18,682 nucleotides of DNA from a virus (Duplodnaviria; Heunggongvirae; Uroviricota; Caudoviricetes). Location of the stretch: the IMG/VR virus record IMGVR_UViG_2778261570_000014; one strand, 5' to 3'. This document shows positions 1,127 to 16,117 of this stretch, in pieces. The first letter of the stretch is position 1. Each line of letters begins with the position of its first letter. Under the pieces are notes generated by a model. That model had not been told where the DNA came from, made no database searches, and was given only the letters and a program-made list of their open reading frames with translations. A program made the translations under genes and the position numbers.

Positions 1127-1573
1127 TCAACCCTCAACTTGCTCGATTGTCATGAGAATACTGTAACGTTTACCTTTATAGAGGGTATCTTGCTGGGTGC
1201 AAAGCACACCAAAAGCCTGTTCCTCAGCATCAACAAGCACAAGCGTGTTAAAGTCGTAAGGCGTGTTATCCGGCATTCTTTCTTGAGGGAAGGCTGCATT
1301 GATCGTGATAATCCCATCCACGCTGGACAATATCAGATCGGACACAGCAAACTGTTGAGCGCCACTCAATTTAAAATCGAGCGGAATGTCCGCTATATTC
1401 CAGCCTCCTGCACCATTAGCAGTTACCAGACTAGATTTGCACCAATACGCCTTAGAGATAACAAAACGCGCACCTTTGCCGATCGCCGACTCTGCGCGGC
1501 GTGAATAATAGTAGGAAAGTAATTGCGCCTTATACAGGCGGTTACCATCTCTTGCCTTTAAATTTTCAGCCAT
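1127..1573 (-). CDS. Hypothetical protein (148 aa) immediately upstream of the tail fiber gene; likely baseplate or fiber-associated
   Basis: ATG start at 1573; stop 2 nt from the tail fiber start; co-oriented in the operon. No recognisable motif. The overlapping plus-strand ORF 1139..1504 looks less protein-like. Confidence 0.5.
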   Translation of the reverse strand: MAENLKARDGNRLYKAQLLSYYYSRRAESAIGKGARFVISKAYWCKSSLVTANGAGGWNIADIPLDFKLSGAQQFAVSDLILSSVDGIITINAAFPQERMPDNTPYDFNTLVLVDAEEQAFGVLCTQQDTLYKGKRYSILMTIEQVEG

Positions 1574-1667: not shown

Positions 1668-2513
1668 TTAAACAGATTGAAGGTGGTAATCCAAAGGCCA
1701 CGCATCGAGTGGGGTTACATCAAGATGTAATTGCTTTTCTGCCGTTCGGTTCGGTATGGCATTAAGAGAAATATTGTCTGCCTGGCAGGAGGTATCACTA
1801 CGGGATAGCATATCAGCCATACTCTCAGTAACATAAACACCTTCAATTACCGAAACATCCGTAGACAGGTAATTTAATATTTCTGCCACTTCAGGGAATA
1901 CAGCACTAAGCCGAAACGAGACGCCATCAAAAACAATATGCAATGGCAACAAAGGGGCTATTACTGTTTCGAAGTCAGATAACAATTTCTGCACAGCGGC
2001 TTCTTTATCCTGCTCTCCATATGAGCGATATAGCTTGTTCTGATCAACAACGACCAGCCCCCTTGATGTCAGGAAGAGCTCACCGAATTGAGCCTGTGCC
2101 GTAGGTATTTCTATTTCGGTCGCAAAATATGAACCATAGGGGTGTTTTTCTATATTTACAGGTGCATACAGCGGTTCCCAACTAACAGGAATACAACCGA
2201 ATTCACGCCAGAATGTCTGCTCAATAGGCAAGATAGTACCTTTAAAGTGCACTTCATCTAAACGCTGCGCCAGAAGCATTGGCCTACGGGCATTATCTTT
2301 TTCAGTGATAACGAAAAAACGCCCGTATTCAGCAATGCGGGCATCCATATCCTCACTGTCCATAGTGAAGAAGGATTTTCTGTTACTTATTCTTGTTAAT
2401 ATTGGTTCTACTGCCTCATTCCAGACATCCTGTAAAGCGTCTATAAATGCACTCCAGAGATGTGAATCCTGTTTTACTTTAGTTAATCGTTCCTTAAGCC
2501 AATTATCTTTCAT
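1668..2513 (-). CDS. Putative baseplate protein (281 aa), positional analogue of P2 gpI
   Basis: ATG start at 2513; sits between the baseplate-J-like gene and the fiber-proximal gene. Assignment is by position only. Confidence 0.45.
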   Translation of the reverse strand: MKDNWLKERLTKVKQDSHLWSAFIDALQDVWNEAVEPILTRISNRKSFFTMDSEDMDARIAEYGRFFVITEKDNARRPMLLAQRLDEVHFKGTILPIEQTFWREFGCIPVSWEPLYAPVNIEKHPYGSYFATEIEIPTAQAQFGELFLTSRGLVVVDQNKLYRSYGEQDKEAAVQKLLSDFETVIAPLLPLHIVFDGVSFRLSAVFPEVAEILNYLSTDVSVIEGVYVTESMADMLSRSDTSCQADNISLNAIPNRTAEKQLHLDVTPLDAWPLDYHLQSV

Positions 2514-2523
2514 GCTAACCTCA

Positions 2524-3954
2524 TTACGGGTAAGAAATGCTGAACGTTGAAGATTTTACGTTAAGATAAATGAAGTCATTAAAGTAAACAGCATCTTTCA
2601 TATTTTGTATTGTTATGTCGTAAGACAGAAACATATCCAGAGACTCTATTACTCGCCAAATATCCTTAACTTTTACCTGTGCATAACATTGCTGGGAATC
2701 ATCATCACTCTGTAGTAATAAACTGAATGATGACGAATCACGGCCAAAATTATCTTCCAACGCTGCTTTAATAGCATTTTGAGCATCGTCTATCAGAACA
2801 TTTTTACGTGCAATACCTATAAAATTTATAGTAAATGGCTGTTCATTTGTATCTACATACTCGAACCGCTTGTTCAACTCATTTGGAACATTCTCTAGAG
2901 CTTTCAGTATTTCTGATTTTAGCTGAGACTGGCTTACACCCGGCTTATGTCCGCAAAAGAAAATTTTGTTGATGTTTCGAACGTCAAACCCAGTTATTTT
3001 CTCTTGTAACGCTTCGCCCCAAACGTTCAACCATGAAGTTCCATGAACAACATTCTGAATGAATTGGCGATAATCACCGCCCCATACCACTTGTTCATCG
3101 TATGCAACATAATACTGAGCACGATTTCGAGTTTCTTCTGTAGTTTCCATACCACTACCACCGGTAATGATCGAATCAGTTTTAAACTCTAGTGACTCCA
3201 CATATTGAGCGATATTTCCAGCCGGTTCTAACTTTTGTCCTTCAGCCAAAGTATAGTCGCCAAGGCTAGCCATAACATCGATTCGAACCTGACAGCCTGC
3301 TGGAGGCATCATACCCATAGAACCATCACCAAACTTGACTCCAAGTTGTTCTGTAGGTTTATATGCCAATGAATAGTGCTTACTCTTGTCTCTGGACATT
3401 CTAAATAATGGGTTATATGTCCATTTTTCTTCTACTCCATCTGTAATAACATAAACATCCAGGCTAGAGACTTCTTTTGTTAACTCTCTGGAAAGCAACA
3501 ATGTCAGAAATAAAGTTTCCTTCTCAATATCAAACGTAATGCTAACAGCTTCATGCTGTTTAGTTTCTACGCCAGAAACAGTTCCTCCAGCAGGAATTAC
3601 AACACTGTTAATAATTGCCAAAGGTGTTTGGTCATTGGCAAGCAATTCAGCCCCGGCTGGTAACGTAATATCCCGATCAGTTTTATTTGTTATAGACGTT
3701 GTTCCGTATGAAGCACTAACAAATCGCCCTACGTAGCTACGGTCTTCAGCAACCGCTAAAATACTTGAGCGGCGCGTTGCCGTTGAAATAAGTCCCTCAG
3801 TGAGGCCGCGACTTGCAAATGTACGGGCAATATAAATAAGCTGCGATCCGAATATAGCGTGCATCTGCACAAACTGACTATTTACAAATCGTGACCACCA
3901 TGTATTTTCATTTAACTTGGCGTTAAATTTGTCCAGTAATTCTGTAATCGTCAC
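2524..3954 (-). CDS. Baseplate J-like protein (476 aa)
   Basis: Directly downstream of the gp25/GPW-like gene; C-terminal region loosely resembles P2 gpJ from memory. Apparent GTG start at 3954 overlapping the upstream stop (GTGA), consistent with translational coupling. Confidence 0.5.
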   Translation of the reverse strand: MTITELLDKFNAKLNENTWWSRFVNSQFVQMHAIFGSQLIYIARTFASRGLTEGLISTATRRSSILAVAEDRSYVGRFVSASYGTTSITNKTDRDITLPAGAELLANDQTPLAIINSVVIPAGGTVSGVETKQHEAVSITFDIEKETLFLTLLLSRELTKEVSSLDVYVITDGVEEKWTYNPLFRMSRDKSKHYSLAYKPTEQLGVKFGDGSMGMMPPAGCQVRIDVMASLGDYTLAEGQKLEPAGNIAQYVESLEFKTDSIITGGSGMETTEETRNRAQYYVAYDEQVVWGGDYRQFIQNVVHGTSWLNVWGEALQEKITGFDVRNINKIFFCGHKPGVSQSQLKSEILKALENVPNELNKRFEYVDTNEQPFTINFIGIARKNVLIDDAQNAIKAALEDNFGRDSSSFSLLLQSDDDSQQCYAQVKVKDIWRVIESLDMFLSYDITIQNMKDAVYFNDFIYLNVKSSTFSISYP

Positions 3955-4325
3955 GCGCCCACCCCACTTGATTTCTGCATAACAATATCCATGCTCCCAC
4001 CTTTCGCATAAAAACTAATTAATAAAGAATCTTCAGAAATTGATGTGCAACGAATCCCTTGCACATCCAAACCTGGCAAGTCTTGTCGTAGTTTTTTCAT
4101 CATTCTCCCTTCAATAGCCACTTCAACTATGTGCGAAGTTTCAGAGCCGAATGGTTCATGCTTAAATTCTTCCATTGGACTCCCCCAAGAGGGTAAACCA
4201 TAAACACTCCCTTCAGGGGTTCGTAGCCACTCGTCAAGTCGGGCCATCCATGCTGCGGTACTTCCTTCTGCAATAATGACACCGCTCTCATTCGTTTGAA
4301 GTCTTGCGTCTATTTCGTAAAGCAT
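3951..4325 (-). CDS. Baseplate wedge protein, gp25 / GPW-like (124 aa)
   Basis: Size and motif ...RLDEWLRTPEGSVYGLPSWGS... resemble the P2 gpW motif ...ILRTPVGSRVMRRDYGS... as I recall it. ATG at 4325, 5 nt after the stop of the large upstream gene. Confidence 0.6.
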   Translation of the reverse strand: MLYEIDARLQTNESGVIIAEGSTAAWMARLDEWLRTPEGSVYGLPSWGSPMEEFKHEPFGSETSHIVEVAIEGRMMKKLRQDLPGLDVQGIRCTSISEDSLLISFYAKGGSMDIVMQKSSGVGA

Positions 4326-4330
4326 CAGTA

Positions 4331-7300
4331 TTAATCCTCAAGCAGAGCATCCAGCGACTGGTCATTAATAGTTGTGCTCGCACGTGGTCGCGGCTGCGGC
4401 TGCGATGTTTTGACAACATTATCCGGATCGCCTTTTGTATTGTTCTTGTTCACATTCAGCAGATCGTTCAGGATAGAGCAGATGTTATCCAGCGCCTTCA
4501 ACATAGCAGGATCGTTATTTATAGTGTCAGTAGTTAATGGTTGTCTTATTCCGCTTCGTGCGAGATCGGTTACAGTAGGGAGTTGTGGCGGCATAGCAAG
4601 AAAAGGTTCTTGCACAGCTGAAGCAGAGCCAAATATGGCGTTATTGGCACCAGTTGCTATTCCCCTAATGCTATTAGCGGTTTGTTGAATCCCCCCATTC
4701 AGCCAGTCTCCAACATTTCTTGTTAATGGGCTAATAGCTCGCGCAATCGCACTATTCTGCCCAGTAGACTGCATTACAAGATCGTTCAATATCCCTGTAC
4801 TATCAATCCCCCCAACAAGTCGTGAAAGGTTATCGCCAACGGCAGGAATTACTGCGGTTCCTGTCTGTTTAAGCCCTGACACCGTGGAATCAAATAGCGA
4901 ACCAAAGAAGCTCTTATCCTCACCTGTAACCACCTTGTAGCCGTTGTCATAAATCTGCACATCACTTGGTGCCGTGATAGTTCGTTTTCCAGAGGTAACT
5001 ACTGGCGCAGCTCCCGCCATAGCCTGGCTGATTGCTAGAGCCTGCTCCTGCTGTGGGGTTTTCGGTGCAGGCGCTGCAGACGAAAAGCCCGCCATAGCCT
5101 GGCTGATTGCTAGAGCCTGCTCCTGCTGTGGAGTTTTCGGTGCTGGCGCTGCAGATGAAAAGCCCGCCATAGCCTGGCTGATTGCTAGAGCCTGCTCCTG
5201 CTGTGGAGTTTTCGGTGCTGGCGCTGCAGATGAAAAGCCCGCCATAGCCTGGCTGATTGCTAGAGCCTGCTCCTGCTGTGGAGTTTTCGGTGCTGGCGCT
5301 GCAGATGAAAAGCCCGCCATAGCCTGGCTGATTGCTAGAGCCTGCTCCTGCTGTGGAGTTTTCGGAGTAGAAGGGGATACTTGATCTCCCGGAAGTAGAT
5401 CAATGATTTCTGTATCGTGATTAACAGTGCGTTTTTGTTGTATGGCTGTTGCGATATCAGCCGCTTGAGAAGCTTTTTTAAATCCAAAAGATTTACCGGT
5501 TAAGCCGGATATCTTTTCAGTAAGAGCCTGATCCATTCCTTTCGCTTTTTCGGAAAGCGAAGATATAGAACCAAACGAAGTAGCCAACGCAAAATCCTTT
5601 ACCAGGTCCAGACTTGTTCCAGCAAGGCTGGTAGCCGCGCCGCCAAATAAATTACTTGCACCACTGATTCCGCTTTCATTTATTGCGATTAACCGCTCAA
5701 GCAAACTCGATGGAGAGCCGGTATTAACATCAGCGTTCTCTGGATTAATCGGTTGTGGTTGGTTACCTGTTTTTTGTGGCTTTTTGACTGCCTGGGCATG
5801 TTGTGCAACCTCAATTGGCTGTTGTGTTGCTGTCGGAACGGCATTCAAAACTGGTTGAGCTGGAGATTTTCCATTAGCATATTTTACCTTGCGACCAACA
5901 CTATATTGCGAATCGCGGGCAATTAGCTGACCACCATTTTCTTTCTGAATTTTATTAATCCGCGCCAATGTTTCGTCAGAGAATTGTCCCTCCCATAGAC
6001 CAGTGTTTGTGTTAAATGCTCCAAGTGCGTTCTTAATGAACTCATTATTAACTGCCGGATTTCCGCCTTCTTTCGTCGCAATTGCACGAACTAATTGCGT
6101 CATAACCTCTGGTTTGCTGACATCTATTTTTTCATTAGGCGATACACCAAGATATTTACTGACGTTATCAATATATTGGTTAGTATTGTTCTCATTTGGC
6201 GGTGCCCATTTTGAAATGATGCTGGATACCGTCTGTAACTTCTGATATCCCGCTGCGGCACTGGTGCCGTTGTAATAGCTGGAAACCTGGTTTGCCAGTG
6301 CCCTGATCCCTTCTTCAGGTGTGTTAAATCGCGCAAAACGTTGTTCACCTTTTGCATTTGGCGATTCCAGCGTCGCCCCTTCCTGGTTGGCAAAAACAAG
6401 ATTGCCGAGATTATTATTTCGGTAATTGCGGTTTTTAGCGTTGCTGCCGCCAATATTCAGATCCGCTGCAATGGTGTTGTTGGCAGGTGAACTAAATTCA
6501 GTTGGAGAAGTATACCCGTGCTCACCAACTCCATCCTCGCCATTACGCCCACCTTGTAATTGTTCACCTAGAGAATGAATCGCATCGACAGTTTTTTTGG
6601 TGCCGTCTTCAACAGCTTTTTTTACTTGTTTCGTGTTTTCGTCAGTGGATAAAAATGTATCCTTAAGGCTACCAAAAACAGATTTGGTGATATCTACCGC
6701 GCCGTTAACACCACGAGCAATATCTCCGGTATCAAAATTCTGAAGTTTTTCACCTGCTCTTTCAAATCCTAGCGCAGAAATTCCTTTCCCTATCAAGTTC
6801 GTTGCGCCCGACACCAAGCCCCCCATATCGAGCACATTAGCTGTTGCGTAAGCCGTTTTTTGCTGTTCGGCTACAGCATCATCGTCACTTAATCCAAAGG
6901 CTGCCTTTTGCGCATCTGTATCAGTGTAACCATCTATAGCGTCATATCCCGCCATAGCCAGCGAACCGATGATAGGGATAGCTCTTGCAGCTGTAGAAGC
7001 AGCTGATTTAACACCTATTTTTGCAGCACTTTTGAGGGCTACGGATTCGGTTTTTTTCTTTGCAACAGTTTCACCTGTTTTAACTGTGGCCTCTTCGGCA
7101 ACAACACCTGCTGGCTTAACTGCCTTTGCTGTGTTTTTTGTTTCTTTAGCAATACCCTTAGATGCGTCGCTTGTGGTGCTGATGTCTTTGGCTTTACTAA
7201 CCTTTGTTTTAACAGTCTTTGCAGCTCCGGCACCAGCTCCAGCAGCAGCGGTTCCGGCAGCGGCTTTTTCACCAACAGTAAGGGCTTTTTTCCCCAGATT

Positions 7301-8461
7301 GCGACCTTTCCTTTTCGGTTTGTTCCGTTTATTTTTACCAGCCTGATCGCCAATATTGATTTTATTTCTTCTGCTTGCTCGATTTCTCCAGAGATCACTT
7401 AAGCCGAACTTATTCCCAGAAGATACTGATTTGCGTAGCTTAACTACTTCGTCGGAGACATTTTCCAGACCATCAATTATTTTGTTGTCATTGGTCTGAA
7501 GAATTTTTGTTTGCTCTTCTACTGCTTGTGCTGATTTTGTCTCAACAGCATTATTAAATGCTGTTGCAGAGGTTGCTTTTTGAGTATTAACCACCGCCGG
7601 ATAAGTGATAGCTGGAGATGTCGCTTTCGAAGGTGAAGCCTCACCTTTCCCCTTTTCTACCCATTCTTTAAGAGATTCTGCTTTACCTGTGATCTCTTTA
7701 GTAATGTCGTACATGCCGCGAGCAGCCATCCACAACGGACCACCAGCGCCAACACCTGCGGCATCTGTTAAAGACTCTTCACTGGAAGACTGATTGCCAT
7801 CTACCCCTATAATGGAGCCTAATTTCCGGAGGAAGCCTTCTTGTAGTTTGGCGTCGGCCTTATGTGCTTTCTGCCATTCTTTTTTTCTGGCTATATCTTC
7901 GTTGTTTTTCTGGGATACAAAGCGTCCGTTACTATCCCGAAGCGGTCCTTTTTGGCTTTGGGGGGATTGTGGTTCAAGAGGAGCAGAATTAGCGGCTAAT
8001 GGCACAGAACCTTTCAACTTTTGGGCTGACTGGCGTGATGACGCAAAATGAACGCGCTCTGATGTGTTGGTTGCAACAATGAGACGTTCTTCTCCGTTGT
8101 TGACCTGCGTCCTCCCTTTTTTCATCGGAAGGCGTTTTATATATGGGTTAGCTTGGGTATTCTTGGCATCATCAGAGACATAGGGTTCGCTTGCTATGAG
8201 TCTACGGGATAGTCTTTGACTTACTTTACCTTGATTTTCACCAAGTTGAGTTATAGACCCTCTACCAGAGAGAATGGCGTCTTTGATCTCAGCAAGAGCG
8301 TTAAGTTCGTTTGTGCTCGCCCCCTGAATAGCGTCAATTATTGCGATACGGTCTTTATTCTCTTTCAAAATAACCTCTCTTTTGCCAGCGGCGATCAACG
8401 TTTCCCGGCTTGAGCTTTGTATTTTTCTTCCAGGGCTTTTGACATATGGAGTGCTCGCCAT
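4331..8461 (-). CDS. Large virion protein (1376 aa), tape-measure-like or structural injection protein
   Basis: Long ORF immediately upstream of the baseplate genes. Contains a Lys/Ala/Gly-rich low-complexity region, a globular segment (NNLGNLVFANQEG...GIRALANQV...WAPPNENNT...) and five 25-aa tandem repeats. ATG at 8461. Confidence 0.6.
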   Translation of the reverse strand: MASTPYVKSPGRKIQSSSRETLIAAGKREVILKENKDRIAIIDAIQGASTNELNALAEIKDAILSGRGSITQLGENQGKVSQRLSRRLIASEPYVSDDAKNTQANPYIKRLPMKKGRTQVNNGEERLIVATNTSERVHFASSRQSAQKLKGSVPLAANSAPLEPQSPQSQKGPLRDSNGRFVSQKNNEDIARKKEWQKAHKADAKLQEGFLRKLGSIIGVDGNQSSSEESLTDAAGVGAGGPLWMAARGMYDITKEITGKAESLKEWVEKGKGEASPSKATSPAITYPAVVNTQKATSATAFNNAVETKSAQAVEEQTKILQTNDNKIIDGLENVSDEVVKLRKSVSSGNKFGLSDLWRNRASRRNKINIGDQAGKNKRNKPKRKGRNLGKKALTVGEKAAAGTAAAGAGAGAAKTVKTKVSKAKDISTTSDASKGIAKETKNTAKAVKPAGVVAEEATVKTGETVAKKKTESVALKSAAKIGVKSAASTAARAIPIIGSLAMAGYDAIDGYTDTDAQKAAFGLSDDDAVAEQQKTAYATANVLDMGGLVSGATNLIGKGISALGFERAGEKLQNFDTGDIARGVNGAVDITKSVFGSLKDTFLSTDENTKQVKKAVEDGTKKTVDAIHSLGEQLQGGRNGEDGVGEHGYTSPTEFSSPANNTIAADLNIGGSNAKNRNYRNNNLGNLVFANQEGATLESPNAKGEQRFARFNTPEEGIRALANQVSSYYNGTSAAAGYQKLQTVSSIISKWAPPNENNTNQYIDNVSKYLGVSPNEKIDVSKPEVMTQLVRAIATKEGGNPAVNNEFIKNALGAFNTNTGLWEGQFSDETLARINKIQKENGGQLIARDSQYSVGRKVKYANGKSPAQPVLNAVPTATQQPIEVAQHAQAVKKPQKTGNQPQPINPENADVNTGSPSSLLERLIAINESGISGASNLFGGAATSLAGTSLDLVKDFALATSFGSISSLSEKAKGMDQALTEKISGLTGKSFGFKKASQAADIATAIQQKRTVNHDTEIIDLLPGDQVSPSTPKTPQQEQALAISQAMAGFSSAAPAPKTPQQEQALAISQAMAGFSSAAPAPKTPQQEQALAISQAMAGFSSAAPAPKTPQQEQALAISQAMAGFSSAAPAPKTPQQEQALAISQAMAGAAPVVTSGKRTITAPSDVQIYDNGYKVVTGEDKSFFGSLFDSTVSGLKQTGTAVIPAVGDNLSRLVGGIDSTGILNDLVMQSTGQNSAIARAISPLTRNVGDWLNGGIQQTANSIRGIATGANNAIFGSASAVQEPFLAMPPQLPTVTDLARSGIRQPLTTDTINNDPAMLKALDNICSILNDLLNVNKNNTKGDPDNVVKTSQPQPRPRASTTINDQSLDALLED
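5010..5366 (-). repeat. Tandem direct repeat, 75-bp unit in about 4.75 copies, inside the large virion protein gene
   Basis: GCCATAGCC recurs at 5016, 5091, 5166, 5241 and 5316 (period exactly 75). The middle copies are identical and the first differs at a few positions. Encodes (APAPKTPQQEQALAISQAMAGFSSA)n in frame. Confidence 0.9.
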
Positions 8462-8515: not shown

Positions 8516-9337
8516 TTAATAATGGTTAGCCATCCATTCAGATCTAATTGATGGGATAAACTCTCTATTGAGAAAGGGGACGTACAGTGTGGTTGTCACA
8601 TCTGCACCCTCCTTAGCGTTTTTGCAATGTTGCGGAGGCAGGATCAGTCGGCTTGAGCCTCTCTCAATAGACATTTTCAGGCCGTGGCGTAGGTCTTTTT
8701 GCATAAGCTGTATGCGAGCCACAAGCGGGGTAAATTCGGTTTCAAGCGCCATGCTTTCAATGATGTCAAAGCGTCGGTTAGCGGCCTGCGTGAAGTCCTC
8801 CGGATCGTCTTCAAGCGCCGTGCATAAAGCGAGTTCAGCAATTCGCATCCGTGCTACGCCAGCACTGTATTCGGGAGTTTTCATATCAGGAAGTGACGCT
8901 CGCATTCGTTCAAGGAGTTCCGCGCCTTTCCCGGTTAATGGTTTAAGTATCCAGTCAGTTGGTACTCCATTTACTGGTACGTTGGTTTTCACGTAAGGAG
9001 GTACAGTGAGTATTTCTACTGTTTGGGCCAGGTCGCTCAGGTTAATATCTGCATGATGCGTATTACCGCAGTGACTGCACTCATAGGAGTAGGTCATTAC
9101 TGCATCGGGGCGCGAATTAACAAATATCCACCAAAGAGCAGTTCTGCGGTCCTGAACTGTCCAGTTAGCACTGTCGTTAATTTCACCATCCTGCATAGAG
9201 TTAAGGTACTCTGTAGTCGTTGCCTCATCTTCTGCCGGGTTCAGGTCAGAATATTTCAGCGCATCCTTCACGGTAGGGGCGTGGAACTGAATTTCTGTCT
9301 CAGGACGGGAAGGCAATGGGAATTTTGGAATGTTCAA
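8516..9337 (-). CDS. Hypothetical protein (273 aa) with a C-x2-C...HH...N motif; divergently oriented from repA
   Basis: ORF with apparent TTG start at 9337 and a GGAGG Shine-Dalgarno 5 nt upstream; first in-frame Met is about residue 47. Contains YECSHCGNTHHADINL. Function unknown. Confidence 0.5.
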   Translation of the reverse strand: MNIPKFPLPSRPETEIQFHAPTVKDALKYSDLNPAEDEATTTEYLNSMQDGEINDSANWTVQDRRTALWWIFVNSRPDAVMTYSYECSHCGNTHHADINLSDLAQTVEILTVPPYVKTNVPVNGVPTDWILKPLTGKGAELLERMRASLPDMKTPEYSAGVARMRIAELALCTALEDDPEDFTQAANRRFDIIESMALETEFTPLVARIQLMQKDLRHGLKMSIERGSSRLILPPQHCKNAKEGADVTTTLYVPFLNREFIPSIRSEWMANHY

Positions 9338-9479: not shown

Positions 9480-9488
9480 ATATCCACA
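9480..9488 (+). promoter_or_regulatory. DnaA-box-like site (ATATCCACA, 8/9 match to TTATNCACA)
   Basis: Seen in sequence directly next to the AT-rich tract and iterons, the usual Rep_3 origin layout. Confidence 0.45.
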
Positions 9489-9545
9489 GAGTATTTTTAT
9501 AAACCTTTTTCCATTTTTAATCCTTTTTAGATCCTTTTTAGGCGT
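9489..9545 (+). promoter_or_regulatory. AT-rich tract with short phased CCTTTTT-type repeats, candidate DNA-unwinding element
   Basis: CCTTTTTCC, ATTTTTAA and TCCTTTTTAG (twice, 11 bp apart) between the DnaA-box-like site and the iterons. Confidence 0.45.
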
Positions 9546-9583: not shown

Positions 9584-9701
9584 GGTGTAAGATTTGCCCT
9601 CAATTAAATACGATCGGTGTAAGATTTGCCCTCAGAAGGTGTAAGATTTGCCCTCAAAAGGTGTAGTAATTGCCCTCAAAGTGGTGTAAAAATTGCCCTC
9701 A
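9584..9701 (+). repeat. Iteron array: five direct 19-bp repeats (consensus GGTGTAAGATTTGCCCTCA) upstream of repA
   Basis: Copies at 9584-9602, 9616-9634, 9638-9656, 9660-9678 and 9683-9701. The first three are identical; copies 4 and 5 differ at 2-3 positions. Spacing 32, 22, 22, 23 bp. Confidence 0.85.
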
Positions 9702-9725
9702 CCATTTGAAGGATCACACAGGGTT

Positions 9726-10481
9726 ATGAACAGAGCGGAATTAACAGCAAAAGCCGTCAGCCTGATTGAGTCAGCGACACCTATTAGTCGTAGTCTGGCA
9801 CAAGCCAATGAGATCACGGAGGCTGCTTATCACCTGACTCGCGACCAAAAGCGACTGTTGTTTATTGTGGTGGGAAGACTTCGCTATGCTTCTAAGGATG
9901 GCGTTCTTGGTTCAGGTGCCTGTGAGTTGACGGTCAACGAATATGCAGAGATGTATAATTTGCCCTCTGCTGAAGCCAGCAAGGATATTCGTAAGGCCAT
10001 TTCAGGGCTTAGCGAGAAGAAAGTTACGATATATAACCCTGATGAATCGACCGAATCAGAAGACAGTTATGAGTCTTATCCCTGGATGATTAAGGATGCC
10101 TATTCACCACGGCGCGGGACTTACATTATTCATCTTAATCCATATCTCATGCCGTTTTTTACTCTGCTTGATAAGAGATTCACAAGGCTGAATTTTACCG
10201 AAGTATCTCGCCTTACAAATCCTTATTCTATGCGGCTTTATGAGTCCTTATGCCAGTACAGGAAGGATGATGGAAGCGGCTTTGCCATACTTGGCGTCGA
10301 ATGGATGCGGGAGCGTTATGGGTTACCAAAAAGCTATCAGCGGTATGCCGAATTTAAGAGAAGTTTTTTAACGAAGGCTGTAGCAGAGATTGAAAAAAAT
10401 ACAAAAATGAAAATAGTCTTCTCAGAGGTGACGGAAGGCGGCAAAGTTACCAGGATAAAATTTACCTATCAGCAGTCTTAA
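9726..10481 (+). CDS. repA: Replication initiator RepA, Rep_3 family (iteron-binding)
   Basis: 251 aa from ATG 9726 (the ORF track starts at an in-frame TTG at 9693 inside iteron 5). Flanked by iterons; resembles pSC101 RepA from memory (LTRDQKRLLFIVVG..., NPYSMRLYESL..., C-terminal KVTRIKFTY). Only gene on the plus strand in a minus-strand cluster. Confidence 0.85.
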   Translation: MNRAELTAKAVSLIESATPISRSLAQANEITEAAYHLTRDQKRLLFIVVGRLRYASKDGVLGSGACELTVNEYAEMYNLPSAEASKDIRKAISGLSEKKVTIYNPDESTESEDSYESYPWMIKDAYSPRRGTYIIHLNPYLMPFFTLLDKRFTRLNFTEVSRLTNPYSMRLYESLCQYRKDDGSGFAILGVEWMRERYGLPKSYQRYAEFKRSFLTKAVAEIEKNTKMKIVFSEVTEGGKVTRIKFTYQQS

Positions 10482-10862: not shown

Positions 10863-11570
10863 TCAGAATTTGATCACTCCACTCACAGCCCCCTTTAACG
10901 CGCTTGTAGCCATGCCAGCGGCACCGTTGACCAAAGCAGAAACACCTGAGCCTGCGGATGTGTATTTCTGGAAAGTGATTGGATATGACAAGAACTCTGA
11001 CACCTGGTCTCGTGAGCGGGTGATTTCCCCAAGTTGAGTGGGGAATACGCGCATTTCCTCTTCCAGTTCTTTACCGCCATCCTGAGTTACCCGGTAGAGC
11101 CGGATCTTCATTAGATATTCAGGAGGAAGGTTTATTGTTCCGTCCGGGTTTGTCACGCGGGAACGACGCTCTTTGAACCAGTTCATGATCTTGCCGTCTT
11201 CGGTATCCCTTACGGTCATCGTGACTGGTCCGGCGGTGACGTAGGTTGGCTTGCTGAACTCTACGCTACCTATCACCTTGTTTTCTGTCTCGATATTTCC
11301 GCTGCTGTAGGTGATATCCTTCACGAACATATCGAAACCGTTCAGACCGTCCACTTCAACCGTCCACTGCCATCCCTGGGCGTAACGAATACGCATAGCG
11401 GCAGCAACAATATTTTTCCCGTAGGCAATATCGCTGCTGTAGTTCCCACTTACCCCGCCGCCGGATATTGCTTTATCCAGAATGTCGCTAATGAGGTTGC
11501 TGGTGAATGATTTTGTGTTAAATGACAGTGCGGTGGTCAACGTTCTGCCAACGCTGCTGAAAATACTCAC
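10863..11570 (-). CDS. Hypothetical virion or tail protein (235 aa)
   Basis: Co-oriented with the tail genes; apparent GTG start at 11570 with GGAGG upstream. No motif recognised. Confidence 0.5.
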   Translation of the reverse strand: MSIFSSVGRTLTTALSFNTKSFTSNLISDILDKAISGGGVSGNYSSDIAYGKNIVAAAMRIRYAQGWQWTVEVDGLNGFDMFVKDITYSSGNIETENKVIGSVEFSKPTYVTAGPVTMTVRDTEDGKIMNWFKERRSRVTNPDGTINLPPEYLMKIRLYRVTQDGGKELEEEMRVFPTQLGEITRSRDQVSEFLSYPITFQKYTSAGSGVSALVNGAAGMATSALKGAVSGVIKF

Positions 11571-11585: not shown

Positions 11586-12137
11586 TTAAAAAATGGTAGC
11601 CCCCGGAATAATCGCCCGGTTTGAGGACATTTTTTCTTCAATCTCCTGAACGCGGGCATATAACGTGGCTTCATCAGGTAGATCTGAGTAGTCAAATTTC
11701 CCGTCGATGGACGCTCGACGCTGGCGGGCGACATTTCTGACATTGATAAGCGCCTCCAGGTATTCTTCCAACATACCAATGATTGCAGGCGGCACTTGCC
11801 ATTCGTCCAGTTTTCTGTCGCGGAGATTAACCAGATACAGCATCCGAAAAGGCCATCGTTCTGAACCTGTCAGCTCTAATTCAATAAAGCCGGATAGTTC
11901 ATCCGAATAGACCAAAAGGCCATTGCTGTCGGTGACGTGAACAAGGGATAGATAATCTTCCGGCAATGGGATTGCGGTGCCACCAGCTTTTTCGAGTTTT
12001 AGTGTCTTCACTACCCCGGCCCTGTCCTGATACGTGGTCAGCGCTTTAATCAGGAAGGCTTTCAGCGTGTCTTCTTCACGCACAAGCAGTGGGTTAAATC
12101 GCGTTTTAACGCTTTCTAATAATTCGGTTGGTGTCAT
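11586..12137 (-). CDS. Hypothetical virion or tail protein (183 aa)
   Basis: ATG at 12137; lies between the tail tube gene and the 235-aa gene. No motif recognised. Confidence 0.5.
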   Translation of the reverse strand: MTPTELLESVKTRFNPLLVREEDTLKAFLIKALTTYQDRAGVVKTLKLEKAGGTAIPLPEDYLSLVHVTDSNGLLVYSDELSGFIELELTGSERWPFRMLYLVNLRDRKLDEWQVPPAIIGMLEEYLEALINVRNVARQRRASIDGKFDYSDLPDEATLYARVQEIEEKMSSNRAIIPGATIF

Positions 12138-12189: not shown

Positions 12190-12681
12190 TCACTCTACCC
12201 AGTTGTAAACAATACGCAGGGAAGGCTTAACGACCGCTGTTACGTCTTCGGATGAGAAGTCCACGGCGTCGGAATACACTTTGCAATGAGAATATGTGCG
12301 GATCAGACCTTTATGGTTACCGCTATTCGATTCAGCCGCCGCCTGTAAGGTAATTTCCAGATATTCTTTTCCGTATACCATCTGTTTTACAGCGGCGAGA
12401 ACTGCGCCTTCGATAGTTTCCGCGCATGTGACCTGAAATTCACCAGAGTTGCGTAATGGTCCGTGCTGGTTGAATTTCATGCCACCAGGGGCGTAATCCT
12501 CCACATCTTCACGTGTCATTTCTGGTAACTGAGCTGTACGAACTAGTACAGACAGATGTTCGTAACCCTTAATGGTCATCCAATATTCAGAACCAATAAG
12601 TTTTTCGCCTGCAGCCAGGTTTTTATTAAACCGGGATTTTAGAAAGGCCATATCGGCTTTTGTATTTGCAAAACCGGACAT
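12190..12681 (-). CDS. Tail tube protein, T4 gp19-like (163 aa)
   Basis: Same length as T4 gp19 and similar landmarks from memory (RTAQLPE vs KATALPAG; C-terminal ...VYNWVE vs ...LDYWE). Strong AGGAG Shine-Dalgarno; downstream of the sheath gene. Confidence 0.55.
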   Translation of the reverse strand: MSGFANTKADMAFLKSRFNKNLAAGEKLIGSEYWMTIKGYEHLSVLVRTAQLPEMTREDVEDYAPGGMKFNQHGPLRNSGEFQVTCAETIEGAVLAAVKQMVYGKEYLEITLQAAAESNSGNHKGLIRTYSHCKVYSDAVDFSSEDVTAVVKPSLRIVYNWVE

Positions 12682-12689
12682 AAATACTC

Positions 12690-13286
12690 CTACACAAAAA
12701 CAGATGAGATATTGCTACGGTTGATCGATGTGTTACCGCTGCATTGCAGGGTTACCGTGTTATGAGTGAAATAGCCTTCCGGTGTGCGCGGGGCGTCCAG
12801 TTGGTAACTCACGCTTTTGATAACAACGCCAGTTAGCAGGACGTTTCTGCCAATATTAATTGTGACTGTTTCAGGAATCCTTCCCATTGGCGCAACGTCA
12901 TTTAACTCTGGAGAGGCCATTTTCAATAAGGTTGTAATTGCGTCATTAACTTCAATTTTTGCATTGGATGTTGCTAAGAAATCCAGCACAAGATTGAACT
13001 CTGGTGGCTGTTGTCCTTCCCAGATTAACGTGGAATTGAATCGGCTTTTGCTTGTCAGTCCACTTAAATTTTGAACTATGCTGGCAAATGATGACGCTGC
13101 TTCACTAATTGAGCCTAACAAACTTCCCATAGCTTTATCTTCAAATGGGGATTGCCATAGTGATGCTAATTCCGCCGACGAACCTTCTCCAATATAGCCG
13201 ACCACCATATCTGTATTGGACTCGTTTATAATATAAACCTTTAAAAAAGGGCTTATGCCATCAGCTAAACTTGCTCCGCAATACAC
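12690..13286 (-). CDS. Hypothetical tail-associated protein (198 aa)
   Basis: Between the sheath and tube genes; apparent GTG start at 13286 with GGGAG upstream, so the start is uncertain. No motif recognised. Confidence 0.45.
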   Translation of the reverse strand: MYCGASLADGISPFLKVYIINESNTDMVVGYIGEGSSAELASLWQSPFEDKAMGSLLGSISEAASSFASIVQNLSGLTSKSRFNSTLIWEGQQPPEFNLVLDFLATSNAKIEVNDAITTLLKMASPELNDVAPMGRIPETVTINIGRNVLLTGVVIKSVSYQLDAPRTPEGYFTHNTVTLQCSGNTSINRSNISSVFV

Positions 13287-13334: not shown

Positions 13335-14069
13335 TTACAAACCGCGTTTTTTGCGAATGCGCATTGATTTTTTGCGGTTGATATTCGCTACGGATGTATG
13401 TGCTTTGCGGCGTGCTTTTTTCAGCGCCTGTTTTTGCAATGACGTCATGCGGCGAGGACGCGGGCGTTTACGGATGATGGTAACCTTGCCATCACGAACC
13501 ACTTTTTTACGTACCGCTTCCAGCATTGCGCTATCACCACCAGCAACGGTGTAAATGGCAATAGCTGTTTCCATCATGTCGGTGTCGCTTTCGGAAAGAG
13601 CGTCAAAAACACGTTCGGCAGCTGAGTCATCTTCATCGTCGATCATTTCGGTTACATCGTCCTGATCAGCGCCAAGCGCAACAGCTGCATCAGCAAGAGC
13701 TGCGAGAGCATCGTTATAAGCATCGATTTGTTCATCGGTGAAATCGGTGCCTTCATCGATATCAGCCAGGCCAGCCATAGTGATTGCTAATGCATCAAAT
13801 GAGTCAGCCTCCGGATCACCATCTTCAACCCAACCAGCAAGCATGGACGCTGCCAGGCTGCGCATATCACCTTGTGCACGGGATTCAACCGCTTCCATCA
13901 TCGCGGTTTCAATGTCGTCTTTGGGCTTTGGTTGAGTGTCCTTTCCTTTCTGTCCTGCACTTTCCAGCATGGCGTTATCATTATTGTCCTGAGTGGATTT
14001 ATCACCGCTTTCAAAGCAGCCAGAACCGAAAATCGCACGCATAAACGGATCAGCAGTATAATTTTTCAT
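13335..14069 (-). CDS. Bipartite acidic/basic protein (about 244 aa): strongly acidic N-terminal two thirds and a Lys/Arg-rich C-terminal tail
   Basis: ORF track starts at TTG 14075; the more likely start is ATG 14069 with GAGAGG upstream. Acidic runs (DDEDDSAAE..., EDGDPEADSFD...) then ...RKRPRPRRMTSLQKQALKKARRKAH...RKKSMRIRKKRGL. No homolog recognised. Confidence 0.5.
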   Translation of the reverse strand: MKNYTADPFMRAIFGSGCFESGDKSTQDNNDNAMLESAGQKGKDTQPKPKDDIETAMMEAVESRAQGDMRSLAASMLAGWVEDGDPEADSFDALAITMAGLADIDEGTDFTDEQIDAYNDALAALADAAVALGADQDDVTEMIDDEDDSAAERVFDALSESDTDMMETAIAIYTVAGGDSAMLEAVRKKVVRDGKVTIIRKRPRPRRMTSLQKQALKKARRKAHTSVANINRKKSMRIRKKRGL

Positions 14070-14083
14070 ATTCAAACCTCTCT

Positions 14084-14112: not shown

Positions 14113-15771
14113 TCAGCGCATCAGAATTGGCTTACCGACGATTCGGCGAGCTGTACCGGTCGGACAAACAGACCAGGCCACTTCCCACAGATCGATGTCC
14201 TTTTGGACAACCTGAACAACATATGGATCTTCACCCTGGGACTTGTCACGTGGAGTAACCAGCGCACCGGCTGCAACGTAACGGTCAAGCAATTCAGTCA
14301 TTGCTTTCATTAGCGCTTCTTTGGTAATGCCATCCGGTTCGTGCTTAATCGCCTGAGCTACTTCATAGAAATCTCTGGCGATGGCGTTCATCAAGGAAGA
14401 CACATGCTGGAATCGCAGATAGTTGTTTTTGCTGTAAGTTGTTAAAGAGTCGTCAATGTAAACGGACCCGTCAGCAGCAACTGAAACTGGATTAATGCGC
14501 GCAAGAACGAACGCTTCACGATCAACTGCACCGATATTTGGAATTCGGGCAATGTTCTGTCGATCAATAATCGCGCGTGATATACCTGCCGGTGCGTAAT
14601 GCCAACCACCAACATCCGGTACCAGCGCCACTCCTTTTGCCTTCGCTACGAATGCGTCGCAGCTAATGCCATAGACGACATTCATTCCAGTGAAAGTATC
14701 TCGGCAGGAGAGCGGGAAGTAGTAACGGCTTGGTTGATGTGAGCCGCCAAAACTATGGCTTTTCGCTTCTGAAATAGCGTTTTCAGGTGTCTGGTTGCCC
14801 TTCAGGTCATAGAACATGTCTACGCGAACATCTTCAGCCAGCTTTTTGATTGCGGCTAAGGCGGATGCGTCATAACAACCCAATGACAGCAATGCGGTGT
14901 AATTAACCTCTGAAGCTTCGAGAACCTTTAATGCTTCCAGATAGTCTGCAGCGGCAATTTCGGACAGATTTCCATCAGTACCACCTTCAAAAGCCACATC
15001 CTCAAAAATGAGTTGAGCAGCGGATGCTTCTGCATTATCTGCCAGTACGGCACCAATGCGAGTGGACTGGCTTTCAAGCAGTGTCGGAATCCATGCTGGT
15101 TGGCCCATGTCGTTGGTGCCTTCTGGATTGAAAGACACTTGGTGGCTTTCCAGCACCTCAATGGACCCATCGGTTTTTTTTTCTTTCAGCGTCAGCGTAA
15201 AGAGTTCGCTTTCTTCATCATCGCGAGTTAGTGATAACGTGCGATTTTGAGATGCATCACCATCTTTGATGAAGAATAATGCCTTCTCTCCACCTTTAAT
15301 CTGGGGCGTCTCTTTGGGTGTGAAGGTCACTGATTGAGTCGTTGCAGTTGGAGCAACACCAACGCTTAATGTGTCACCTGGATTTGCTGTGGTTTCAGTA
15401 GGTTCAACGGAAAGTTCTTTGCTCGCCTTTGCCGCTTTTGCTTTGCCCACAACGGAAACAGAAATACCCGGCACCTTCATGTCTTTAGCGCAAACTCGAA
15501 CGACATATCCAGAGCCGCCTTTTACTGCACGCTCCACGTGGCGATATGGTTCAAATGCCGCGCCCAGGCGAGGGTGAATCGGTGAACCTAATACGCTTTG
15601 ATAAGTCGTATCGTCAACTTTCAGTACCTTACCCGGTGCGCCACGACGCGATATTACAAGCCCAGCAAAGACGGATGCGCCACCGCTGGTATTGGTGAGG
15701 GTAGCGTCAGCATTTACTGACATTACAGCAACGCCAGCTGCCTGCCCTACCGAAAAACTAATCTTATTCAT
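14113..15771 (-). CDS. Tail sheath protein (552 aa)
   Basis: Size and the C-terminal domain resemble T4 gp18 from memory (WHYAPAGISRAII vs WMSPAGYNRGQI; ...INPVSVAADGSVYIDDS...). ATG with GAGGA upstream; followed by tube-like genes. Confidence 0.7.
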   Translation of the reverse strand: MNKISFSVGQAAGVAVMSVNADATLTNTSGGASVFAGLVISRRGAPGKVLKVDDTTYQSVLGSPIHPRLGAAFEPYRHVERAVKGGSGYVVRVCAKDMKVPGISVSVVGKAKAAKASKELSVEPTETTANPGDTLSVGVAPTATTQSVTFTPKETPQIKGGEKALFFIKDGDASQNRTLSLTRDDEESELFTLTLKEKKTDGSIEVLESHQVSFNPEGTNDMGQPAWIPTLLESQSTRIGAVLADNAEASAAQLIFEDVAFEGGTDGNLSEIAAADYLEALKVLEASEVNYTALLSLGCYDASALAAIKKLAEDVRVDMFYDLKGNQTPENAISEAKSHSFGGSHQPSRYYFPLSCRDTFTGMNVVYGISCDAFVAKAKGVALVPDVGGWHYAPAGISRAIIDRQNIARIPNIGAVDREAFVLARINPVSVAADGSVYIDDSLTTYSKNNYLRFQHVSSLMNAIARDFYEVAQAIKHEPDGITKEALMKAMTELLDRYVAAGALVTPRDKSQGEDPYVVQVVQKDIDLWEVAWSVCPTGTARRIVGKPILMR

Positions 15772-15838: not shown

Positions 15839-16117
15839 TCAGGATTCGCTTACCGTGAAGTTATCGCCTACAGTTACTTCTTTCGTAGTTGGTTCAACAC
15901 TGACGGTGCTTACGCTTTTATGTGCCTCCCTAACAGTGACTGTGCACTGTGCGGTTTTATTGCCGTCATTTGTTTTGATTGTCAGCACTGCCTGCCCGGC
16001 CTTAAGAGCGGTACATGTAGTGCCATCAACCTGGACAATATCAGGGTGATCTGACTCAACAGTGAAAGATTTGTCTGTTGCGTCAGGTGGCGTGATAGTT
16101 ACTTGAATGTTTGCCAT
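15839..16117 (-). CDS. Small Ig-like (Big_2-type) domain protein (92 aa), possible capsid or tail decoration
   Basis: Pattern ...FTVESDHPDIVQVDGTTCTALKAGQAVLTIKTNDGNKTAQCTVTV fits the bacterial Ig-like group 2 consensus. AAGGAG 6 nt upstream of the ATG. Confidence 0.55.
   Translation of the reverse strand: MANIQVTITPPDATDKSFTVESDHPDIVQVDGTTCTALKAGQAVLTIKTNDGNKTAQCTVTVREAHKSVSTVSVEPTTKEVTVGDNFTVSES

Follow-up and report, generated by a model that had tools for sequence, protein, structure and literature searches.

A homologue of the P1 protein Sit with a predicted Enc34-type muralytic domain and a 75-bp repeat of variable copy number in a D6-like Escherichia coli phage-plasmid

Sit of phage P1 is a virion protein, described as a structural injection transglycosylase and assigned as the tape measure protein, and the sole protein long enough for a ruler (PMC9024508; PMC12810830). 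It has never been resolved in P1 cryo-EM, where the centre of the baseplate has unresolved density inside (PMC12810830), and variable tail length was reported for mutants of gene 6, not of sit (PMC9024508). The hub of P1 is gp6, the spike is formed by gp5 and UpfC, and PmgA is a gp25-like wedge protein (PMC9024508; PMC12810830); the gene 16 product is wedge protein 2 (PMC12810830), and deletion of pmgB leaves P1 with no tails (PMC9024508).

The window, i.e. the whole 18.7-kb stretch of DNA analyzed here, has 95% nucleotide identity to phage D6 and 98.3% to the E. coli plasmid p702_18_3. The longest open reading frame (ORF) and its neighbors are as follows.

8516..9337, minus strand: pmgB homologue directly upstream of sit (phrog_1854, E=1e-134; D6 annotation)
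4331..8461, minus strand: sit homologue, longest ORF, 1376 aa from the first ATG, stop codon TAA at 4331-4333
3951..4325, minus strand: pmgA, gp25-like baseplate wedge protein 1, 124 aa (PmgA of PDB 9ay5/9vzk, E=4e-19)
2524..3954, minus strand: bplA, baseplate wedge protein, T4 gp6-like (BplA of PDB 9ay5/9vzk, E=6e-111; phrog_1369)
1668..2513, minus strand: gene 16 homologue, baseplate wedge protein 2 (phrog_2015, E=2.5e-130; D6 annotation 'similar to P1 gene 16')

Judged by sequence, the ORF at 4331-8461 is the homologue of D6 orf40 and P1 Sit in a D6-like (P1-family) E. coli phage-plasmid. Over its full length it matches phrog_7182, 'tail injection transglycosylase' (E=0, 2312 bits; profile positions 1-1228 aligned to residues 32-1376). 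It shares 83% identity with D6 orf40 (YP_009914717, 'tail injection transglycosylase; similar to P1 gene sit') and 75-99% identity with hundreds of database proteins. Together these findings rule out a chance ORF and bear out its earlier reading as a real gene. The gene maps of the window, D6 and P7 share the order pmgB-sit-pmgA-bplA-16-R, and the gp25-like gene that a first-pass annotation had placed directly after the ORF is indeed there, as pmgA, 5 nt downstream of the sit stop codon. The gene is already catalogued as Sit, and the combined tape-measure and ejection functions suggested by that annotation agree with the role already published for P1 Sit (PMC9024508; PMC12810830). Operon boundaries were inferred from spacing only, as a P1-type late promoter sought by eye upstream of pmgB gave no defensible call. 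PmgB, in P1 a tail-assembly factor and proposed tape-measure chaperone, showed a weak, sub-threshold T4_baseplate match in Pfam and no significant match to PDB sequences.

The probable start of translation lies within the ORF.

8368-8366, minus strand: probable true start codon TTG, with the Shine-Dalgarno sequence GAGAGG at 8379-8374, 5 nt upstream

Relative to D6 and p702_18_3, a 1-bp indel at ~8390 shifts the reading frame; both N-terminal versions are frequent among relatives, the codons upstream of the TTG being read in different frames, and the protein begun at TTG 8368 (MKENKDRIAIIDAI...) lines up with P7 Sit from its very N-terminus (MERKNANIDDVIRT...). Given the frame-shifting indel, the two N-terminal versions, the Shine-Dalgarno sequence and the P7 alignment, the first ~31 codons are probably not translated, and the product would be 1345 aa long. 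The PHROG profile alignment begins at residue 32 of the 1376-aa ORF, whose numbering is kept throughout. Annotated start codons of sit in the D6 lineage differ from record to record.

Along the protein, the following parts can be told apart.

6611..8341, minus strand: residues 41-617, N-terminal region common to P1/P7 Sit (BLASTP against P7 Sit)
7022..7411, minus strand: residues 351-480, basic, then Ala/Gly/Lys-rich low-complexity tract (50-aa block composition)
6587..7099, minus strand: residues 455-625, conserved Gly/Ala-rich hydrophobic module (PHROGs, Kyte-Doolittle, conservation)
6017..6439, minus strand: residues 675-815, predicted Enc34/PHA02564-type peptidoglycan glycosidase domain, globular and nearly invariant in the D6 lineage
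6206-6208, 6173-6175 and 6068-6070, minus strand: W752, Y763 and E798, catalytic-site equivalents in the Enc34 alignment
4991..5365, minus strand: residues 1033-1157, five tandem 25-aa units PKTPQQEQALAISQAMAGFSSAAPA, a 75-bp VNTR (TRF)
4334..4990, minus strand: residues 1158-1376, conserved C-terminal region, near-invariant in the D6 lineage

The protein is thus a mosaic, as first described, with the Lys/Arg/Ala/Gly-rich tract, the globular domain and the tandem repeats all present. The N-terminal region aligns with P7 Sit over 602 columns (residues 41-617; BLASTP E=2e-31, 26% identity). Lys and Arg make up 17 of the 50 residues at 351-400, and Ala and Gly 19 of the 50 at 401-450; this tract (residues 351-480) is the lowest-confidence part of an AlphaFold2 model of residues 177-1376, itself unreliable (mean pLDDT 30, ~39% helix) and built on a shallow 61-sequence alignment. 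The hydrophobic module, a candidate for the membrane-inserting part, contains two moderately hydrophobic segments by Kyte-Doolittle (residues 486-509, nt 6935-7006, and 548-566, nt 6764-6820), is 42% identical to P7 Sit, matches phrog_2533, 24683 and 21630, and is nearly invariant in the D6 lineage. The same module lies mid-protein in at least 143 representative clusters of mostly long phage proteins (mostly 600-2300 aa), and tape measure proteins commonly have A/G-rich low-complexity tracts and tandem repeats (PMC13585406), so that the label 'atypical' given to this protein does not hold. Residues 1158-1376 are presumed to form the hub-proximal end; the extreme C-terminus is weakly like P7 Sit (residues 1279-1357 against P7 1029-1108, BLASTP E=0.003).

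Regarding the globular segment, residues 675-807 match the Enc34 endolysin's catalytic domain (PDB 7Q47) with E=1.1e-15 and ~30% identity, and residues 675-815 have the all-helical permuted lysozyme-like fold. W752, Y763 and E798 align with Enc34 Trp79, Tyr95 and Glu131; in 121 homologous sequences E798 does not vary, and W752 and Y763 are each conserved at 90% or more. Profile search yielded at least 3786 relatives of the domain, against 16 proteins from a word-indexed search; Enc34-type domains stand at the head of T7-like phage 'internal virion proteins', of 'structural proteins' from other phages and of the 1295-aa PDB chain 9vvp, 'Gp29'. The Enc34 domain lyses permeabilised E. coli, and the domain type has been argued to be an N-acetylglucosaminidase-like glycosidase (PMC8943055). 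Homology to this active domain and the conserved catalytic residues support the earlier suggestion of a muralytic function, which is predicted here for residues 675-815. The domain might instead be a degenerate binding module, since muralytic activity has been measured on no Sit protein and confidence in the model is low for the domain's N-terminal part, around the RNNN motif; this is, however, decidedly unlikely, given that the catalytic Glu and both aromatics are kept here and in the 121 homologues and that the domain is nearly invariant in the D6 lineage. With an Enc34/PHA02564 domain in place of the P7-type SLT domain, 'transglycosylase', a product name carried over from P1, is probably a chemical misnomer in the D6 lineage.

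Regarding the hub, spike and tip, no match to hub or spike families was obtained among the window ORFs scanned, in line with the initial remark that no such gene adjoins sit, and neither Pfam, PHROGs nor PDB sequences revealed a hub or spike domain inside the 4331-8461 ORF. In D6, genes 6 (hub), 5 (spike), upfC (PAAR tip), upfB and 26 (plug) belong to other gene clusters; apart from upfB, seen in D6, each was also confirmed in p702_18_3. The hub, spike, tip and plug clusters lie 8-20 kb from sit in both genomes, with the hub and spike genes at ~20 kb, and the hub, spike and tip genes are 98-100% identical between the two. D6 gp6 and gp5 match the P1 baseplate chains Gp6 (E=8e-72) and Gp5 (E=3e-55) of PDB 9vzk; D6-type genes 5-6 were seen in 105 plasmids and the Sit core in 108. 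That neither a hub nor a spike gene adjoins sit is the normal P1-type scattering of genes, as known from the relatives, only 18.7 kb of the window's own genome being seen. The idea that the Sit homologue doubles as hub and/or spike, those genes being absent, had drawn on the 18.7-kb window without either gene; it is extremely unlikely in view of the separate genes 6, 5, upfC and 26 in D6 and p702_18_3 (with upfB in D6), the D6 gp6 and gp5 matches to P1 hub and spike chains, and the lack of a hub or spike domain match in the ORF. As counter-evidence to its own proposal, the first-pass annotation had named a plain coiled coil without an enzyme together with a hub or spike gene elsewhere in the same operon: profile searches show an enzyme domain, and hub and spike genes do exist in the genome but outside this operon. 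For routine annotation, the call is Sit of a D6-like phage-plasmid, the "missing" hub and spike having, as in P1, their genes elsewhere; some plasmid records still label gene 6, the hub, as "tail length tape measure protein".

To our knowledge, Sit has never been shown directly to be the tail ruler of P1-type phages. The gene very probably encodes the D6-lineage version of P1 Sit, an internal tail protein that would act as tail-length ruler and as an injected cell-wall-opening, channel-seeding protein; its role as ruler, the way it lies in the tube, its expulsion, its insertion in the membrane and its activity in vivo are proposed by analogy with P1 and from general tape-measure knowledge. In the gene map, sit is placed between tube/assembly genes and baseplate genes, and its product alone in the tail module has the length required; the further long proteins of D6 are the head-internal DarB homologue and the tail fibre S. 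Curated tape-measure models in Pfam and NCBIfam gave no match, nor did any family at all, with the whole protein and three pieces, and the only PHROG 'tape measure' match, phrog_2276, covers the enzyme domain alone. Alternatively, Sit might be an injected muralytic 'pilot' protein only, with tail length set by another factor. This is consistent with the lack of a sequence match to known tape-measure families, with a repeat copy number of 0-7 without apparent cost, with the variable tails historically given by P1 gene 6 mutants (PMC9024508) and with the P1 trunk, whose 53 rings of ~40 Å each (PMC10304247) need 1.86 Å per residue of the 1140-aa Sit, more than an alpha-helix provides. However, gp6 is structurally the hub (PMC12810830; D6 gp6 match), D6 has no other long-enough protein except the DarB homologue and the tail fibre, the gene is in the usual tape-measure position and density is found in the P1 baseplate lumen (PMC12810830), which makes a role as pilot alone unlikely.

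Under the preferred reading of Sit as both ruler and injected protein, Sit would be produced late, along with the wedge proteins and PmgB. The cavity of the hub (gp6, encoded elsewhere) would hold the C-terminal end of Sit, and the tube initiator and tube (Tub, PmgG, BplB) would polymerise around Sit up to its N-terminal end. On sheath contraction, the gp5-UpfC spike would pierce the outer membrane and depart, and Sit would then be expelled into the periplasm, where the putative glycosidase of residues 675-815, with E798 as general acid, may cleave glycan strands locally and the Gly/Ala-rich hydrophobic module (residues 486-566) may insert in the inner membrane and aid DNA crossing. The 25-aa repeats would serve as a variable spacer that separates the enzyme from the C-terminal anchor.

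TRF reports the array as a 75-bp repeat of 4.7 copies (5013-5365; 98% matches, score 685): units 1-3 are identical in DNA, unit 4 differs by 2 nt with the same peptide and unit 5 is partial. Copy number ranges from 0 to 7 among 120 homologues, the repeats being absent from D6, and repeat-span differences among complete E. coli plasmids are multiples of 75 bp. Three DNA-identical units are of a sequence type prone to short-read mis-assembly; an assembly artefact is very unlikely, however, as the differences by whole 75-bp units run across many independent complete plasmid assemblies and arrays also occur in protein clusters of up to 877 members. An ORF on the plus strand at 4974-5384 was rejected as a gene, being the repeat array read on the opposite strand.

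If helical, one 25-aa unit would span ~37.5 Å, against a tube-ring rise of ~40 Å in P1. As near-identical D6-like phage-plasmids carry 0-7 units, each close to one ring rise, their tails might differ by whole rings; were Sit a strict ruler, alleles with 0-7 repeats should give tails of visibly different length in phages that are near-identical. We know of no reported tail-length differences among near-identical D6-like phages. After the hydrophobic module, an Enc34-type domain is present in 32 of 143 clusters, and SLT and VgrG3-C-like domains in 14 and 8, respectively, of 48 sampled. Tentatively, the 75-bp repeat could be a natural tail-length dial and the muralytic cassette of the Sit family (Enc34-type, SLT or VgrG3-C-like) exchanged as a module, a joint proposal regarded as possible rather than probable. 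If true, tail length would be naturally polymorphic within populations of a contractile-tailed phage, by up to ~7 rings (~28 nm). The repeat polymorphism gives an inexpensive natural test of Sit as the P1-type tail ruler.

Among known systems, the closest are D6 orf40 and the 'transglycosylase' genes of D6-like E. coli, Salmonella and Shigella phage-plasmids, which are alike in gene and neighbors at 83-99% identity and have the Enc34-type domain and hydrophobic module of the window protein; D6 itself is without the 25-aa repeats, whereas the window allele has five, and its N-terminal frame differs by the 1-bp indel. Sit of P1/P7 has a like position, between pmgB/tub and pmgA-bplA-16, is homologous over ~600 N-terminal residues and, weakly, at the extreme C-terminal end, with no other alignment across the middle and the C-terminal third, and also carries a muralytic domain after the hydrophobic module. 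In P7 Sit, however, this is a Pfam SLT domain (GH23, PF01464; residues 748-857, E=6.6e-27), unrelated in sequence to the Enc34/PHA02564 domain of the window protein, in which SLT gave no match at E<=1 with the whole protein and three pieces; P7 Sit belongs to phrog_2533 and the window protein to phrog_7182.

Long internal virion proteins with a peptidoglycan hydrolase and hydrophobic segments, expelled at infection, include T7 gp16 and the Kayfunavirus 'internal virion protein with endolysin domain', which came up by enzyme-domain similarity, as well as T5 Pb2 and mycobacteriophage TM4 Tmp. All of these belong to other tail types and have different folds elsewhere, and homology beyond the enzyme domain was not detected. 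The Hafnia phage Enc34 endolysin (7Q47; PHA02564 family) and M4Lys of Salmonella phage BSPM4 share the fold and the Glu/Trp/Tyr signature at ~30% identity; both are small lysis proteins, carry a C-terminal membrane domain and work from inside when infection ends, whereas the Enc34-type domain of the window protein is embedded in what is, by analogy with P1, a virion protein of 1345-1376 aa and would act from outside at entry.

Comparison of the window by megablast revealed 95% identity to Escherichia phage D6, a P1-family phage-plasmid, across 93% of its length and 98.3% identity to the E. coli plasmid p702_18_3, its closest relative, across 99%. A total of 49 plasmids reach a coverage of the window of 80% or more. 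On this similarity the window belongs to the D6 group of P1-family phage-plasmids. The 1376-aa ORF at 4331-8461 is the homologue of P1 sit, and 5 nt separate its stop codon from pmgA, the gene for a gp25-like wedge protein, which it directly precedes as the first-pass annotation had stated. The order of the minus-strand genes was derived from PHROG matches and the D6 annotation.

Gene map of the window (PHROG/D6 annotation; tail-fibre gene S by synteny with D6)
16265-17962, minus strand, capsid gene 23
15839-16117, minus strand, Ig-like ORF
14113-15771, minus strand, sheath gene 22
13335-14075, minus strand, gene 21
12690-13286, minus strand, pmgG
12190-12681, minus strand, bplB (tube)
11586-12137, minus strand, pmgC
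10863-11570, minus strand, tub
9693-10481, plus strand, gene of the Rep3 plasmid initiator, with its iterons
8516-9337, minus strand, pmgB
4331-8461, minus strand, Sit homologue
3951-4325, minus strand, pmgA
2524-3954, minus strand, bplA
1668-2513, minus strand, gene 16
1127-1573, minus strand, R
beyond R, start of tail-fibre gene S

In the solved P1 baseplate (PDB 9ay5/9vzk), matches to the corresponding chains were obtained for Tub, PmgG, PmgA and BplA (E=4e-19 to 6e-111). PmgB (8516-9337, minus strand) scores 23.8 bits with the Pfam model T4_baseplate (PF12322), just under the cutoff of 24.5, has a weak match also to phrog_150 'baseplate hub' and contains the CxxC-bearing stretch YECSHCGNTHH. 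A sequence search of the PDB found no relatives. The role of PmgB may be that of an assembly factor for the hub or tape measure, not of a classical gpG-type chaperone. A G+C content of 0.38-0.39 was observed at 2000-3500 (bplA, gene 16), compared to 0.44-0.51 elsewhere in the window. Bases ~1-566 are presumably part of gene S, which runs off the window; by megablast they have 80-88% identity to tail-fibre genes of otherwise unrelated Escherichia and Yersinia phages, and the D6 match starts only at base 544, a pattern that looks like tail-fibre mosaicism.

A plasmid replication origin separates tub from pmgB midway through the tail gene cluster; it has the Rep3-family initiator (9693-10481, plus strand; Pfam Rep3_N, E=3e-29), five 20-nt iterons at 9584-9702 (GGTGTAAGATTTGCCCTCAA, spacing 22-32 nt) and, at ~9480-9545, an AT-rich stretch and a DnaA-box-like site, TGTGGATAT. 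In P7, the annotated tub genes (tubA-tubC) and sit form an uninterrupted stretch under a single late promoter.

Regarding the identity of the ORF, its product gives an end-to-end match to phrog_7182 ('tail injection transglycosylase', E=0), is 83% identical to D6 orf40, annotated 'similar to P1 gene sit', and has hundreds of database relatives at 75-99% identity; by these matches the ORF is a genuine gene. One extra C at ~8390/8391 (window 8385-8395) relative to D6 and p702_18_3 shifts the first ~25 codons of sit to another frame, which opens with a different ATG. Both frame versions are widespread in relatives, and public start calls for sit are inconsistent (MDISP in 74 clusters, MASTP in 20 and the shorter MKENK in eight). 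The true start is probably the TTG at 8368-8366, giving a product of 1345 aa, since GAGAGG, a Shine-Dalgarno sequence, lies 5 nt upstream (the site spanning 8366-8379), the protein read from this TTG (MKENKDRIAIIDAI...) aligns to the very N-terminus of P7 Sit (MERKNANIDDVIRT...), and the PHROG profile match starts at the same point; residue numbers used here count from the first ATG (8461). About 15 of 120 homologue clusters (P0036, P0046, P0049, P0058 and others) begin with MGVDG or MGMDG, corresponding to residue ~218 here, and are ~220 aa shorter, which suggests that in some D6-like plasmids a frameshift or stop codon interrupts sit; such plasmids may be defective prophages.

None of the window ORFs scanned against Pfam and PHROGs matches a hub or spike family; the first-pass annotation had noted that no such gene lies between this ORF and the gp25-like gene and had called the protein atypical. 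This description does not stand, because the missing neighbours reflect the layout of P1-type phages, whose tail genes are scattered around the genome, with genes 5, 6 and upfC elsewhere in D6 and p702_18_3. Cryo-EM of P1 identified gp6 as the hub, gp5 and UpfC as the spike, UpfB as the tripod, gp26 as the plug and Sit as the tape measure, the latter having no resolved structure in the maps (PMC12810830); a P1 proteome and knock-out study made the same assignments via HHpred, and noted that gp5 is without a lysozyme domain and that this activity is 'likely supplied' by Sit (PMC9024508). Extending the search for a spike gene beyond the locus, as had been proposed, located gp5 and gp6 in both relatives, away from sit.

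Location of sit, hub, spike and tip genes in D6
40.8-44.6 kb, sit
55.8-56.9 kb, upfB and upfC (PAAR)
64.2-67.4 kb, genes 5, 6, 24 and 7
69.5-71.0 kb, genes 26 and 25

The D6 proteins gp6 and gp5 match their P1 chains in 9vzk (E=7.6e-72 and E=2.9e-55, respectively), the p702_18_3 copies of genes 5, 6, 24, 7, 26, 25 and upfC are 98-100% identical to those of D6, and 105 plasmid records contain D6-type gene 5-6 DNA, while the D6-type Sit core was detected in 108. As D6 and p702_18_3 have separate hub and spike genes, nothing in these close relatives suggests that the window protein replaces either. Several plasmid records (e.g. CP082672.1, CP123682.1, CP088573.1) label D6-type gene 6 or 5 'tail length tape measure protein'; the mislabelled gene is presumably gene 6, which structural work on P1 has proven to be the hub, and the label seems to survive from the former assignment of P1 gene 6.

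The conserved globular segment that had been noticed, and thought possibly muralytic, comprises residues ~675-815 and is nearly invariant. Its best match among PDB sequences is 7Q47, the catalytic domain of the Hafnia phage Enc34 endolysin (E=1.1e-15, residues 675-807), followed by the N-terminus of the 1295-aa chain 9vvp 'Gp29'; at least 3786 relatives emerged from a profile search, none with a Pfam domain on record, and AlphaFold2, using an alignment of 120 relatives, models residues ~704-819 at pLDDT 80-96. The Enc34 domain lyses permeabilised E. coli, has the catalytic signature Glu131, Trp79 and Tyr95, and has been argued to use a GH73-like N-acetylglucosaminidase mechanism (PMC8943055). 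The equivalent residues in the window protein are E798, W752 and Y763, the first invariant and the other two at least 90% conserved in an alignment of 121 sequences. P7 Sit has a clear Pfam SLT domain (residues 748-857, E=6.6e-27), while the Pfam scan gave no SLT signal in any part of the window protein. Judged by these residues and matches, the segment is a predicted muralytic domain of another type than the database name 'transglycosylase' implies.

The remaining features ascribed to the protein were also found, namely a low-complexity region, basic and then Ala/Gly/Lys-rich (351-480), and tandem repeats, a 75-bp repeat of 4.7 copies encoding five 25-aa units (residues 1033-1157), of which units 1-3 are identical in DNA. 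Repeats and Ala/Gly tracts of this kind are common in tape measure proteins (PMC13585406). D6 has no unit, and the window and p702_18_3 have five each; among 120 homologue clusters, 0-7 units occur and protein length changes in steps of 25 aa. The sit region was detected in 78 of 5426 complete E. coli genomes, always plasmid-borne, with matched spans differing by multiples of 75 bp. Thus, the array is a genuine VNTR and did not arise by misassembly. A 136-aa plus-strand ORF at 4974-5384 was rejected as a gene, being the array read on the opposite strand and stop-free through repetition. In P1, the tail trunk consists of 53 rings, with a rise of ~40 Å along the axis (PMC10304247). At 1.5 Å per residue a helical 25-aa unit would measure 37.5 Å, so that a Sit acting as a strict ruler would be expected to lengthen the tail by approximately one ring per unit; the 0-7-copy polymorphism in a presumed ruler may be a small, new finding.

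The analysis shows a homologue of Sit in syntenic position, with a domain of Enc34-type fold whose catalytic residues are intact and a conserved hydrophobic module, and close relatives that carry separate hub, spike and tip genes. By analogy with P1 and tape-measure biology, the protein would be incorporated in the lumen of the tube, its C-terminal end lying in the cavity of the gp6 hub, and would determine tail length; upon contraction and loss of the gp5-UpfC spike it would be expelled into the periplasm, where the glycosidase domain would open peptidoglycan and the hydrophobic module would insert in the inner membrane, helping DNA to pass. This mechanism is weakened by the lack of a match to any curated tape-measure model in Pfam or NCBIfam, whole or in pieces, by the full-length structure model, whose mean pLDDT of 30 is too low to use, and by Sit not being resolved in the P1 maps. 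The proposal that the protein combines tape-measure and ejection functions was the right idea; together with the muralytic reading it is already the view taken of P1 Sit in the literature, and the D6 gene is annotated accordingly.

Compared to P7 Sit (11-523), residues 41-617 of the window protein align at 26% identity (BLASTP, E=2e-31), with strong conservation at 490-617, and the extreme C-termini align weakly (E=0.003). The two proteins belong to different PHROGs (7182 and 2533 for P7 Sit), which cross-match in the conserved middle module only (455-625), a Gly/Ala-rich region with moderately hydrophobic stretches at 486-509 and 548-566. When 1.84 billion representative proteins were scanned in full with HMMER, this module was detected in 143 clusters, nearly all of 600-2300 aa and nearly always mid-protein, with an Enc34-type domain slightly downstream in 32. 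Among 48 of the other clusters sampled for Pfam domains, 14 have SLT, eight the muralytic C-terminal domain of T6SS VgrG3-like proteins and 26 nothing that Pfam recognises. Tandem repeats of any kind occur in only eight of the 143 family representatives. P0275, a distant Sit-like protein with an Enc34-type domain, has a proline-rich one at 765-938 (period 50 in the scan, its two halves alike), located just after the enzyme domain like the array of the window protein. The variety of domains downstream of the module indicates that the family keeps the N-terminal part and hydrophobic module and swaps the muralytic cassette, so that by sequence the D6 lineage represents a common design in its Enc34-type form and is no oddity. 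The replacement of the SLT domain of P7 Sit by an Enc34-type cassette in the D6 lineage, as one case of this family-wide exchange, may be a small, new observation.
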